From Escherichia coli O157:H7 (lineage in GTDB: Bacteria > Pseudomonadota > Gammaproteobacteria > Enterobacterales > Enterobacteriaceae), in NCBI RefSeq assembly GCF_013167455.1, contig NZ_CP038328.1: a stretch of DNA of 64,000 nt; one strand, 5' to 3'. Position numbers: made by a program. Shown in pieces: positions 30,001 to 36,000 of this stretch (positions are counted from its first letter, which is position 1; every line of letters begins with the position of its first letter).

Positions 30001-33000
30001 GTTTAACCAGACCTGAATTTTAACCACGCCAAGGATCATGGCGAGGATAATAATGATTAACAACACTGAAGTTTTATTATTCTTACGCAGCCAAAAGGGC
30101 TTCAGCAGACAGAGATACTTTGCTATCAACATACAAAACGTAATGGGAATGGTTATCATTAGCGAAAATTGATTGTGCCATCCAATGATTATCTATGGCA
30201 ATGATTTACTGATGAAATTTATTTAAGTATCATTTAACAATATGAAATATATAGAAATTTTTAATTTTCAGTGGTTATGGTTATGCTATTGATAATCAAG
30301 GGTATTGCTAATGCCCTGACGCATACCACGTAAGCCAAGATTTTCGCAAGGGAAGATGATGATGACGAAACACCCGACAGGAATTTATGTCGGGTGCCTT
30401 GTTAAGGTCATAAGAAGGAGGCTAAGAATGGAGCTAAAAGAGAGCGTTATTAATTATTCTCCATTTGTTTTGCAACATCCATAATGTGGTAAAGCGGTAC
30501 TCTGTTCTTGGCTAACTCCACCATGGCGTTCATATAAGGTACCATGGTTGAAAAAAGGATTTTATAACCTTCGCAAAAATAGGAAACAGTCTCATCGTTT
30601 ACTTTAGTAATACGATGCTTAGGGCAACCGCCATTGCAGATAGGTTTATATGCACATTGCTGACATTTCGCTGAAATCCGTTTTTTTTGCGCTGTCAGTT
30701 GTACACTGTTCATCGTTTTAAGTTCAGATTTATTAATGTTTCCAAGTTTGTACTGTGGATAGACAAAATGATCGCATTCGTAAATATCTCCATTACTTTC
30801 AACAACCAGATTATCCTTGCAGGACTCCTGGAAAATACAACTGGTATGCCCATTCCCCAAAAAACGGCTGACAAAGCTTTCAAACTGACGGATGAAAATT
30901 TCACCCACATCGTTTTTAACCCATTGCATAAAAATGGTTGACATAAACTTGCCATAAGCCGTGGGAGGCACAGAAAAATCAATGATACGGAATGTGTTCT
31001 CACTATGACCACTGAAATCAATATTCGGCGTCCCGGTTTCGAGCAATTCGATAAATTGCATATGTTTACTGCCGATAGATTTTAAAAAATGATAAACCTC
31101 AAGAGGGTAATGGACATTAACGTTATTAATGACGGTTAACGTATTAAACTCTACTTGATATGATTTCAGACGCTCGATGGCTGCTATCACTTTTGCAAAA
31201 GTACCGTTACCTGAATTACTGCGTCTGTAACGGTCATGTAGCTCCTGGGGTCCATCGATCGAGATACCAACCAGAAACTCATGTTCTTTGAGAAAGGCAC
31301 ACCATTCATTATTCAATAAAATGCCATTCGTTTGTAATGCATTAAAAATACGTTTTTGGCCTGCATAGCGTTGTTGATAGTGAATAACTTTACGGAAAAA
31401 ATCCAGGCCAGCCAGAGTGGGTTCACCGCCTTGCCAGGTAAAATAGACCTGATTGCCAGACGCTGCGATATATTGTTTGATGAACTCTTTCAGAGTGCTG
31501 TCATCCATCCATTTTTCATGAGTAAACTGCGACTCTTTTTCAAGGTAAAAACAGTAATCACATTTGAGATTACATTGAAAACTGGAGGGCTTGGCTGTAA
31601 CGTGCATCGCTATCTCGCTCAATAAGGCGGCGGAAAAATCCGCCGCATGAAGGTTTAGTTATTTCGCTTCGCTTAGTGCTTTCTTGATATTGTTAAACTT
31701 CTCCTGATTTACCTCGCTAAGCGGTGGCTGGCTGCTGTCGATAAACTCTCTTACCACGCCTTGCATCTCTTTAACGACCTGCGGATTGGCGGCGGCAAGG
31801 TTATCTTTTTGCTGTAGATCCGTCAGTTTGTAGAGACCTAACTGATTGTTTTCTACTGTATAGACAAGCGAATAATCGTTATTTCTCACCGTATAAGAGA
31901 ATTGGCTTAAGTCCTCAGTGTTGGGGTTATGCGGGTAATCGTCTGACTGATGACGGACAAATTTGTGGTAGTTATCCCAGAATGGAATATTTTCCTCATC
32001 AAACCAGTGAGAATAAGAGGTTATCCAGGTCAGATTTTTATGTGGCTCGCCTTGTTTCTTATCTTGCAACCAGGGCAGCAAGGAAACGCCATCCAGCTTA
32101 AGGTCTTTTGGAATGCTGATATCGGCTGCATCAAGAGCTGTCGGGTAGAAATCCATTGCGGAAATCAGCTTGTCATAATTACCGGGTTGAAGTTTTCCTT
32201 TCCACCACATAAACATTGGGGTGTGAGTACCGCCAGGATAGGTCTGACTCTTATAGCCTTTTTGCGCCCCGTTCAGCGGCAGAGGACCATCGATAACCGC
32301 ACCATTATCGGAGGTAAAGAGAATAATTGTATTGTCATACTGTCCGTTTTTCTTCAGTTGTTCGAGAATGCGTTTTACACCCTGATCAACAGAATAAACG
32401 GAAGCGTAGTAGTTATCTGCTGTTTGACTACCGGTATTAAATTGCTTCTGATATTGCTCCGGTGCAGGATTATCATTTGGCAGGTGCGGAGCATTATAAG
32501 CCAGGTAAAGCATAAAAGGCTGGTCAAGTGTTTTGGCACGATCAACAACGCCAATTGCCTCATCGGTTAACTGATCGCTGATATAACCTTTTGCGGGGAC
32601 ACGTTCACGATTCTTGAACAGTGAAGGGGAGTTGTAATATGCCGTTCCTGCAGCGTGGAATCCCATAAAGTAATCAAAGCCACGGTTTTGCGGTTGCCAT
32701 TCTTCCGCAGAAAATGTGGTGAAGTTGTCATGATAGTCACGTGTTTGTTTATCTTCCGGTACCGGCACATTACTGATTTTTGACAAGTGCCATTTACCTA
32801 CTGCTGCAGTGTAATAACCATGATTCTGGAATAATTCAGGCAAGAAAGTTTCTGTTAGCGGAATACCATCCTGAGCATCAGTATTGGAATAGACACCAAA
32901 GCGGGCGGGCGCTCGACCGGTCATTATTGCGGCGCGGGAGGGGCCGGAAACACCGTGCGCCACATAGCCGTTAGTAAAACGTACGCCTTCATCCATTAAT

Positions 33001-36000
33001 GAAAGGAGCGTCGGCGTTGATTTTTGCGCAGCTTCAATGGCTTTATCTATCCCTATTTTGTAGGTATCGACAACTTCACGATTTTCCATTGTTTTTGGGT
33101 CAAAAGATCCCTTATCAAAAGGAAGTTGTCCATAACCAAGATCATCCATGGTCAGTACGATAATATTTGGCTTTCCTTTGGTACTGTATTCAGTCGGCGT
33201 AAAGTCTGAGAAAGCAACGTTTGTTTTGGTTGCTTTCAGCTTTACATCATCTGCCGCATGAGCAGCAAATGCAGCCATACCAGATGCCAGTATCAAAGAT
33301 ATCGAGGTACTTACGACACTTTTCTTTAATGCAGACTTCATAAATGTTCCTCTTCTTATTGTACTTAATTCCAAAGTAATTTTACGAAGAGAAATAAGTG
33401 GATGTAAGTGAAGTTAGTCACATAAAGAGATAGCAGATTTAGCTAAAAAAAGGGAAATAACAGTCCATAAAGCGTTGACATTACTTTTTATTCTACTAAG
33501 TAATTTCTCGACGATAAACAATTAATCTATTGATATTTAATAAATTATTGTATTTTACTAACAAAATGCCGAATTGAGATCATAAATAATCATGCAACAA
33601 GTTATGCAAATGCATAAATATGTGATGAATGTCACTTATTTATTTCAATAAATATATCGCCTAAAAACAACGCGGGGCAGGGAATGACTGCCCCATTTTT
33701 AATTTTTACGTAGGGTGCGTGGTTGACTACTCGTTAGCAAATAATCAAATAGCTAAAGCATTCATCGTGTTGCCCGTATTCATACCCGTGTGCCTTTGAC
33801 AACGGTACTCCTTAGAAACTCTCTTTGGACTGTTGCCGAAATGTTTGCGGAACGCATAAATAAAATAAGATGTACTGGCATAACCACATTGTTCGGCAAT
33901 TTTATTGACTGAACCTTCTACGCGTATCAAATTTTTTGCGTGCTGCATTCTGGCATCTAAAAGAATCTGTGAGAATGTCGTTTGCTCTTGCTTTAGTTTT
34001 TTCTTCAACAGGCTTTCACTGATGTACAGGCAGTCACAAATATCTTTCAGCTTCCATGGGTGCGCCAGCTTCATGTTGACAATATTTCTCACTTTCCCCG
34101 AAACGGATAGCACACCGTTAGTTAATAGTGTAATGAAACCTTTGCATGTGGCAAAAATAGACAGGCAAGAAAAAAGCAAAAGTTCTGAAAAATTATGATG
34201 ATTGCGTTCTTCCGAGTTGAGATAAGCAATCATTTCATTAAGCAATCCAGTCGGTACATTCGAAGCACGTAAAAACTTCGCAGGAACAGGCATCGTCACT
34301 GTCTGGATGTTAGTGCATTGTAGATATTTTTTAATGGTATTTTCATTAAATCCGATTTCTTTAAAATGCCGCTCATAAGGTTCAAAATGCGTACGAACAG
34401 CGTTATCTACCATCAGGATCTCGCCGTCAGAGAAGGCGTAATCTTTATCTAAAATGTTAGCGTTGAAGGCATGATGAATAAATATAACAGAACAAACGAG
34501 CGACATTTTATCTCCTTAAAACAATAAAGTTTTATCGATACTTTTTTAACATTTCATATTTATAATTTGCTGTTTATTTTCAGTCTTGCAAACTATTGAC
34601 AATGAAATGTGTAAGATCTCTTGCAATGCGACCCATTTCTGAAATACCCAGCTGATCAATTGCCGAAAAAATGGCTATCAACGTAAGGGTCAGTAATAAG
34701 ATAACCACAATTACAGACATGATTTCTTTATAGTTGTCTCTTTGCGTGATTTTGTTTTTCACTGTGGTCGCATGCATTTCAAATATGTTTATTTAGCGGA
34801 TAACGTTAAAAATCGTTAATCAGTATGCTTAATATAACAGGCTTGAGAAAAGAGGAAATAGGACTGGTGCTTCAGTACTGAGCGGAGTTTCTTACAGCTG
34901 TAGGCAGAAGTTTATATCTTATAGTATGTAGTTTAATTTAATCCATGTGAGCAAATTGCGCGATAATAATCAATGAGGAATTCTTCTGCTGTGCGGATGA
35001 CAGCAGAAGAAATGAGAAGAGGCATTAATTTGATGGTTCTAATTCAACCGGAATACTTTTATAGCCAGGAATGCCACTTAATGGATCGTGGTTATCAAGT
35101 GTTAGCATGTGATTCGATTCTGGAAAATAGGTCACCAGTGAGCGGTCAGCCATAGGGTAAATGACCACTTTTAATCTATCCATGCGGCGTGAGCTGCGCT
35201 TACCGTCTGGCGTAAGCGCAATAAGATTAACTCTTTCGCCGTTTTTTACACGGCAAATTTTAGCTTGTTTAGCACTCATAAAGACCACATCTCGTTGACC
35301 GAATACCCCTCGATAGCGATCATCCATACCATAAATCGTCGTGTTGTACTGATCGTGGCTGCGTACTGTCGCCATGACCAGCTTACTGTTAAACGCTGAA
35401 GAGGGATCTTCTAACAGCCCTTTGCTGGTAATGAAATTAGCCTTACCTGACGGCGTCATCCAGCGCCTTTCAGCAGCTGCATTTATCAGGTGAAAACCAC
35501 CGGGATGACGGATGCGTTGGTTATAGTCGGCGAACTCTGGCAGCACAGCTTCAATGTCATTGCGAATGCGATCATAATCTTCCACCAGATACTCCCAGGC
35601 TACCACGCTCTGGGGTAGTGTTGCCTGCGCGATTCCCGCGACCACAGCACACTCTGATTTCAGCATTACACCGGCGGGTTTTAACACGCCACGCGAGGCA
35701 TGAATCATCGACATTGAATCCTCAACGGTTACCGCCTGCGCACCGCTTTTTTGCATGTCAATCTCGCTACGTCCCAGAACCGGCAGAATATAGCTATGCC
35801 GTGCGGTCAGCAGATGAGAGCGGTTAAGCTTAGTGGCTACGTGTACCGCCAAATCTAATTGCGTTAACGGTACAGCGCTCGCTTCCCGATCTGGCATTGC
35901 CAGTGCAAAGTTGCCCCCCATGCAGATCAATGCTCGAGCCTGCCCCGTACATATTGCTTGCATGCTGGCAATTGCAGCATGTCCAGGTACATGAGGTGGG

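Follow-up and report, generated by a model that had tools for sequence, protein, structure and literature searches.

In the 64,000-nt window analysed here, i.e., the whole stretch taken from contig NZ_CP038328.1 of Escherichia coli O157:H7 (assembly GCF_013167455.1), the genes ydeN and ydeM lie in series on the minus strand. The open reading frame (ORF) of ydeN was located at 33341..31659 (560 aa), from the ATG of MKSALKK at 33341 to the stop codon at 31661-31659. The ORF of ydeM was located at 31607..30450 (385 aa), from the ATG of MHVTAK at 31607 to the stop codon at 30452-30450. The ydeN gene comes first, and the spacer between the two is 51 nt. Upstream TTG starts would stretch the ORFs to at most 571 aa (ydeN) and 390 aa (ydeM). 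An MH[VIF]T equivalent is the start of 18/18 YdeM orthologues, which supports the ATG at 31607. A first-pass annotation had placed a sulfatase followed by a radical S-adenosylmethionine (radical-SAM) maturase at 30450-33341, and these limits proved exact to the base. The roles were recovered as well, i.e., YdeN matched the Pfam Sulfatase family PF00884 (E=1.3e-70), YdeM scored above the cutoff of TIGR03942, and RefSeq names on identical DNA are "sulfatase-like hydrolase/transferase" for ydeN and "anaerobic sulfatase maturase" for ydeM. We consider the pair to be an operon of a serine-type S1 sulfatase and its dedicated anaerobic maturase, with a probability of roughly 0.88.

Many E. coli O157:H7 chromosomes carry the 3.7-kb stretch around the pair with 100% identity. 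Of 5426 complete E. coli genomes, 5390 gave a match to it, and the coverage was at least 80% in 5321. The ratio of nonsynonymous to synonymous substitution rates (dN/dS) against E. albertii was 0.014 (ydeN) and 0.035 (ydeM), and synonymous sites were near saturation. This ratio was computed for the E. albertii comparison only; dS was saturated against genera beyond Escherichia. From these ratios, ydeN and ydeM are not chance ORFs.

The PF00884 match in YdeN spans the full 301-position profile over residues 58-408 (238.6 bits against a cutoff of 25). The formylglycine acceptor motif, S132-G-P-S-R, is encoded at 32934..32948 (minus strand), and Ser132 would be the converted residue by homology. 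In full, the motif reads S132-G-P-S-R-AAIMTGR, i.e., C/S-x-P-x-R followed by xxxxTGR, which is the pattern of family members; the first-pass annotation had proposed to look for its C/S-x-P-x-R part. The SGPSRA segment is invariant in 18/18 YdeN orthologues, and the acceptor residue is serine in every one. YdeN contains no cysteine; therefore, the enzyme can only be serine-type. This refines the earlier reading, which left the acceptor type open, to a pair predicted to be serine-type only. Across 44 YdeN homologues, D66, D67, R136, H185, H286, D345, and K364 were invariant, and K183 and N346 were conserved in at least 90%. By homology, this set is predicted to hold the metal ligands and the catalytic residues.

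In the N-terminus of YdeN, MKSALKKSVVSTSISLILASGMAAFAAHA followed by ADD, two or three lysines were recognised together with a hydrophobic core and the site A-H-A. Inspection of this N-terminus revealed neither a twin arginine nor a lipobox cysteine. The segment is predicted to be a Sec-type signal peptide of residues 1-29 (codons at 33255..33341, minus strand), with putative cleavage after A27-H28-A29. The AlphaFold2 model of YdeN showed a sulfatase fold with a mean predicted local distance difference test (pLDDT) score of 90.8 and was confident from residue 50 on. Low pLDDT, with disordered or helical structure, was found only over residues 1-42. These features agree with the description of the sulfatase as secreted, and it is reasonable to consider YdeN a predicted exported, serine-type, formylglycine-dependent S1 sulfatase.

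YdeM passed the NCBIfam model TIGR03942, "anaerobic sulfatase maturase" (505.7 bits against the equivalog cutoff of 349.45), in which YdeM residues 2-364 align to profile positions 1-362 of 363. Pfam matches were Radical_SAM and SPASM. The radical-SAM [4Fe-4S] motif, C12-NLK-C16-DY-C19, is encoded at 31551..31574 (minus strand). The SPASM region with eight auxiliary-cluster cysteines and D279 is encoded at 30573..30839 (minus strand), and the cysteine spacing beyond CxxxCxxC is C257x5C263x14C278, C315x2C318x5C324x3C328, and C345. Because the radical-SAM motif begins at residue 12, YdeM is without a signal peptide.

The best solved relative of YdeM was anSMEcpe, the anaerobic sulfatase-maturating enzyme (anSME) of Clostridium perfringens (PDB 4k36-4k39), with E=2.8e-63 to 4k36 over residues 4-359. 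In anSMEcpe, the auxiliary I cluster is bound by C255/261/276/330 and the auxiliary II cluster by C317/320/326/348 (PMC5682303). The correspondence was read column by column from the HMMER alignment, with anSMEcpe numbering from the same paper. YdeM C12, C16, and C19 fell on C15, C19, and C22 of the radical-SAM cluster. YdeM C257, C263, C278, and C328 fell on the four auxiliary I ligands (C255, C261, C276, and C330), and YdeM C315, C318, C324, and C345 on the four auxiliary II ligands (C317, C320, C326, and C348). All 11 cysteines thus align one to one, and the extra cysteine clusters of the anSME type, claimed earlier, are in place. With the acceptor motif also present in YdeN, the first-pass reading withstood both of the checks that could have overturned it. 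The 11 ligand cysteines and the Asp after C278 (D279) were invariant in 18/18 maturases, and the non-ligand C103 varies. Two further features of anSMEcpe recur in YdeM, i.e., the GGE motif and an Asp following the third auxiliary I cysteine. The two enzymes differ in that YdeM stays below the cutoff of PRK13758 (255 vs 441), a profile whose coordinates coincide with the anSMEcpe alignment. YdeM is accordingly predicted to be a cytoplasmic radical-SAM/SPASM anaerobic sulfatase-maturating enzyme.

SPASM enzymes also include maturases of peptides that are made on the ribosome and modified after translation (RiPP), and YdeM matched DynA, DarW, DarE, YhhB, and other cyclophane or thioether models with E=1e-45 to 1e-65. 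YdeM could on this ground be a RiPP maturase whose adjacency to ydeN is incidental. However, all of these models remained far below their cutoffs (e.g., DynA 219.8 vs 450), whereas the cutoff of TIGR03942 was passed, and the best structural relative by sequence was anSMEcpe. No precursor-peptide gene or conserved small ORF accompanies ydeM in the loci examined, and a serine-type sulfatase adjoins it in 18/18 loci across phyla. A peptide maturase is therefore hardly credible, and the sulfatase-maturase pair is the reading kept below.

Orthologous loci were collected by exact-protein look-ups and one scan of a species-representative genome collection. In 18/18 complete loci from approximately 11 genera, a YdeM homologue (46-99% identity to YdeM) directly followed the sulfatase, with both genes on one strand. 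Among enterobacteria and Aeromonas, the loci came from Escherichia, E. albertii, Leminorella, Citrobacter, Cedecea, Mixta, Yersinia pestis, and Aeromonas; the others came from Iodobacter (a betaproteobacterium), Grimontia, Psychromonas, Anaerobiospirillum (four loci), and Fusobacterium (three loci). In all cases, the sulfatase showed higher conservation than the maturase. The flanks were different in each of the genera examined, and insertion sequence (IS) elements are among those of Aeromonas. The constant adjacency on one strand while the flanks differ, together with the conserved residues and the low dN/dS, suggests that ydeNM is a working, horizontally mobile two-gene cassette. The first-pass description of a self-contained unit is borne out by this arrangement.

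The limits of the cassette were seen in blastn of the window against the E. albertii locus. A single block of 83% identity covered 30446..33480 (minus strand), i.e., 139 bp upstream, ydeN, the intergenic hairpin, and ydeM, and the flanks were without homology. The proteins were 96% and 88% identical between the two species, and dS was 1.3-2.0. The different neighbourhood in E. albertii, the 83% DNA identity, and this dS point to a separate acquisition or allelic replacement of the cassette, not vertical descent.

The ydeN-ydeM spacer contains a hairpin, GCGGCGGA-UUUU-UCCGCCGC, at 31627..31646 (minus strand), 12 nt after the ydeN stop codon and followed by a CUUAUUG tail. Its minimum free energy was -18.7 kcal/mol (z=-3.06 against dinucleotide shuffles in E. 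coli; hairpins of other loci were assessed with mononucleotide shuffles). A GC-rich hairpin of 7-10 bp, or 14 bp in one Anaerobiospirillum locus, was found in the same place in 15/15 proteobacterial loci, and the stem sequences differ between these loci. In an alignment of nine short spacers, the consensus fold had nine pairs, and eight of them showed compensatory double changes. Paired cells made up 95%, against 41-69% when the 3' partner was slid by 1-3 columns, and the observed covariation was reached by 0/500 shuffles. The hairpin is kept by compensatory changes in proteobacteria. The terminator consensus scan did not call it, and with the CUUAUUG tail and no proper U-tract it was not filed as a canonical Rho-independent terminator. 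It is probably a leaky terminator or 3' stabiliser that would hold the maturase below its substrate protein.

Upstream of ydeN, a promoter-like element, CTTACA-18-TAAAAT, was found by sequence scan at 33379..33422 (minus strand), and a CRP-like site, TGTGACTAACTTCACT, overlaps it. This proximal site (33422-33407) overlaps the -35 region and is centred approximately 42 bp upstream of the putative transcription start. The whole block hardly differs between E. coli and E. albertii, and we infer that it functions as promoter and CRP site. A distal CRP site, TGTGATGAATGTCACT, was detected in the ydeO-ydeN intergenic region at 33621..33636. The 370-bp spacer between ydeO and ydeN thus carries two of only three near-consensus CRP sites in the window. 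The distal site is one base off a reported site upstream of ydeN, TGTGATGGATGTCACT, which was found by chromatin immunoprecipitation sequencing of CRP in enterotoxigenic E. coli (PMC4287617) and by Footprint-seq with a dissociation constant of approximately 1.8 nM (PMC12871828). The ydeN gene is also among the CRP targets in genomic systematic evolution of ligands by exponential enrichment (PMC3105977). Just after ydeO, at 33673-33695, a hairpin resembling a terminator in both directions was noted (GGGGCAGGGAATGACTGCCCC, with T-runs on either strand), and the regulatory region of ydeN has its upstream boundary there.

Other regulators have been reported at this locus. Upstream of ydeN, binding of AraC requires arabinose (PMC3738151). 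In our scan for AraC half-sites (TAGC-N7-TCCATA, at most two mismatches), 37 matches were obtained against 48 expected by chance, and none upstream of ydeN was convincing; the reported AraC site was thus not located. The ydeNM genes are co-transcribed, and in the mouse gut an araC mutant expresses them more highly (PMC10878103). GadX is a repressor of ydeNM (PMC4918353). At pH 4.4, ydeN is down by 5 log2 along with mal, xyl, and tre genes, and YdeN is listed as periplasmic (PMC10746267). The CRP binding, the arabinose-dependent AraC binding, and the GadX repression indicate that the control pattern of ydeNM is that of a carbon-scavenging or carbon-catabolic gene. YdeN protein was also detected in the O157 proteome in anaerobic rumen fluid (PMC3936929). 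In response to FD&C Red No. 40, an azo dye, ydeN was the sole E. coli gene significantly induced, and the ydeN knockout still depleted the dye (PMC10653809).

A working order for the pair is proposed from the gene structures, motifs, sequence family membership, gene-pair conservation, and hairpin covariation determined here, with maturase chemistry and regulator binding taken from the literature. The order of events, the periplasmic location, the role of the hairpin, and the substrate class are our proposals. In the cytoplasm, YdeM would carry one radical-SAM [4Fe-4S] cluster (C12/C16/C19) and two auxiliary SPASM clusters, and would cleave S-adenosylmethionine reductively to form a 5'-deoxyadenosyl radical. 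The radical would take the C-beta hydrogen from Ser132 of unfolded YdeN (SGPSR) to give C-alpha-formylglycine, following the C-beta hydrogen abstraction mechanism of anSME (PMC5682303). D279 probably acts as the base, with the auxiliary clusters as the probable electron conduit. YdeN would then be exported via Sec, lose its 29-residue signal peptide, and fold in the periplasm. In that compartment, hydrated formylglycine would hydrolyse a sulfate ester, together with a divalent metal held by D66/D67/D345/N346. The intergenic hairpin, as leaky terminator or RNA stabiliser, would probably leave more sulfatase than maturase message. The substrate would be small enough for outer-membrane passage, most likely a sulfated sugar or short oligosaccharide, possibly 4-O-sulfated and galacto-configured.

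For the substrate of YdeN, the relatives were compared. The best PDB matches by sequence were S1_19 carrageenan sulfatases (E=1e-42 to 1e-52, 26-28% identity). The best fold matches were also S1_19 enzymes, with a target template modelling score (TM-score) of 0.80-0.82, and S1_16 enzymes came next by sequence and by fold. Sulfatases of both subfamilies act on 4-O-sulfated galactose or N-acetylgalactosamine (Gal/GalNAc). The S1_19 enzymes, i.e., ZgCgsA (9hh2), Ps i-CgsB (6b0j), and PsS1_19B (6psm), have the catalytic core in common with YdeN. However, they are cysteine-type, are approximately 100 residues shorter, lack the insertion described next, and belong to marine polysaccharide-utilisation systems. 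An insertion of approximately 35 residues after DDLGYGQ is common to YdeN and its relatives of 30-45% identity and is absent in S1_19-like sequences. In clustering at 50%, the YdeN clade stood alone, and the next relatives had at most 43% identity and were mostly cysteine-type. A sulfated galacto-sugar is our best guess for the substrate, with low confidence. No characterisation paper was found among the papers available, and the SulfAtlas paper does not mention YdeN, which was therefore assigned neither to S1_19 nor to another subfamily. The first-pass annotation had called the substrate unknown, and a 2024 paper says the same (PMC10878103).

It may also be asked whether the ester is a sulfate. 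Some formylglycine enzymes of the alkaline phosphatase superfamily act on other esters, e.g., a phosphonate monoester or a phosphodiester, and YdeN has a weak Pfam match to Phosphodiest (PF01663), reaches no NCBIfam sulfatase equivalog cutoff, and bears the cautious NCBI name quoted above. However, each of its best matches, by sequence as well as by fold, is a true carbohydrate sulfatase, and the full sulfatase residue set is conserved. A non-sulfate substrate is thus very improbable, and YdeN is treated as a sulfatase in what follows.

Similar pairs are known in other bacteria. In Klebsiella pneumoniae, AtsA is a Sec-exported periplasmic serine-type arylsulfatase, and AtsB oxidises its serine before export. 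By description, YdeN and YdeM follow the same logic, i.e., an exported serine-type sulfatase beside a cytoplasmic three-cluster maturase. However, the closest solved relatives of YdeN are carbohydrate sulfatases, unlike the arylsulfatase AtsA. The regulation also differs, because the AtsA/AtsB pair is controlled by sulfur supply and tyramine, whereas that of ydeNM looks catabolic (CRP, AraC). The Clostridium anSMEcpe has a cysteine-type partner sulfatase, unlike the serine-type partner of YdeM. In Bacteroides thetaiotaomicron, gut formylglycine sulfatases with an anSME likewise reach host sulfated glycans (PMC10878103; titles of 7all, 7oza, and 5g2v). There, one maturase, ChuR, serves many sulfatases in polysaccharide-utilisation loci, whereas ydeNM has one maturase, one sulfatase, and no accompanying glycan-utilisation genes.

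Several points weigh against a working sulfatase operon with a dedicated maturase. Without co-expressed AtsB, E. coli reportedly does not mature the serine-type sulfatase of Klebsiella, and cysteine-type sulfatases are said to be still matured in a double mutant of aslB and ydeM. YdeM would therefore be silent, of narrow specificity, or without activity in laboratory culture. No transporter or glycosidase gene accompanies the cassette in the loci examined; together with the predicted periplasmic site, this was taken to argue for a small porin-diffusible substrate. The guess of a 4-O-sulfated galacto-sugar, of low confidence, rests on 26-28% identity to S1_19 enzymes lacking the insertion. The three Fusobacterium loci (3/3) have a short spacer with a Shine-Dalgarno sequence and no hairpin, and the U-tract after the hairpin is poor in most lineages, with a real U-run in some orthologues. 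Some E. coli carry a second serine-type sulfatase variant (565 aa, 77% identical to YdeN) that is followed by a hairpin and has no adjoining maturase. A degraded maturase was sought downstream of this paralogue, and tblastn gave no match even at E=10; the paralogue presumably relies on ydeM in trans. Finally, no enzymatic activity has been reported for YdeN or YdeM, and the substrate is called unknown (PMC10878103).

Part of these points would fit a cryptic silenced remnant, i.e., a gene pair that is intact in E. coli, is not expressed or active, and has no physiological use. The AT-rich region (GC 0.32-0.45) is typical of horizontally acquired DNA, foreign AtsB is reportedly needed for serine-type maturation, and no sulfatase activity or substrate has been reported (PMC10878103). 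In the one assay found, the ydeN knockout was without a phenotype (PMC10653809). However, a remnant would not be expected to show dN/dS of 0.014 and 0.035 despite near-saturated synonymous sites, or to be matched in 5390/5426 E. coli genomes. All catalytic and ligand residues are kept in 18 lineages, and regulated expression was seen by transcript, ribosome profiling, and protein. In addition, ydeM was a fitness gene in mouse cystitis by transposon-directed insertion-site sequencing (TraDIS). A silenced remnant is therefore unlikely, and a functional sulfatase operon with its own maturase is preferred.

The paralogue loci (L022, 2615-5544, and L023, 1497-4426) lie right behind a porin gene and near an IS110 transposase. 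A porin gene was also observed in one Aeromonas locus (L003), approximately 1.8 kb upstream of the sulfatase. These porin genes may hint that a porin admits the substrate.

The pair and its predicted roles are already known; all E. coli annotations contain them, and their discussion dates back to 2007. Therefore, nothing here is categorically new. The additions are modest: the pairing is strictly serine-type across phyla, the boundaries of the cassette were delimited, the intergenic hairpin covaries, and a proximal CRP-like site was located. Because the pairing is invariably serine-type, YdeN activation would be possible only with a radical-SAM partner under low oxygen. The sulfatase is under very strong purifying selection in nearly all E. 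coli and in many pathogens, including Yersinia pestis, Salmonella, Proteus, and Aeromonas. Its gene is turned on in the manner of sugar catabolism and is up in gut-adapted mutants. Naming the YdeN substrate would clarify how non-mucolytic enterobacteria gain from sulfated host glycans.

A wider picture can be drawn, which we regard as doubtful. ydeNM could be a mobile, self-sufficient "desulfation cassette", comprised of a promoter with a CRP site, a serine-type periplasmic sulfatase, a stoichiometry-setting hairpin, and a maturase, which move together among gut and aquatic bacteria. It might let non-degraders, e.g., E. coli, Yersinia, Aeromonas, Anaerobiospirillum, and Fusobacterium, desulfate small host or diet sugars that primary degraders set free. 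Mucin or chondroitin might supply such sugars in the form of 4-O-sulfated Gal/GalNAc. After desulfation, the sugar would be used in ordinary catabolism, and the insertion-bearing YdeN subfamily might represent a new substrate specificity.

In RefSeq, the neighbours of the pair are yddA on one side and ydeO-safA-ydeP on the other. GC content was 0.32-0.45 over approximately 29750-35250 (yddA-5'/ydeM/ydeN/ydeO/safA) and rose to 0.50-0.54 in ydeP, a profile that fits a mosaic of horizontally acquired segments. In an Rfam search of 30000-34000, only a sub-threshold isrK match was obtained (20.3 bits against 50, E=0.27), and it was treated as chance. The annotated gene yneP (40 aa), at 30362-30484 on the plus strand, converges on ydeM and overlaps its last 35 nt.

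Two observations were made in the sequence collections. In the contig JARKOR010000108.1, which bears the label of a "Candidatus Nanosynbacter" metagenome-assembled genome, ydeN and ydeM are present, and their proteins are 99-100% identical to those of E. coli; the contig almost certainly belongs to E. coli and was misbinned. Gene calls of 650-880 aa (P0001-P0003, P0008, P0013, P0015, and P0023) join YdeN to AraC-type helix-turn-helix, YdeP-type molybdopterin, or fimbrial chaperone domains. Each came from a single Logan or NCBI contig, and these fusions look like artefacts of gene calling that reads through into neighbouring genes.

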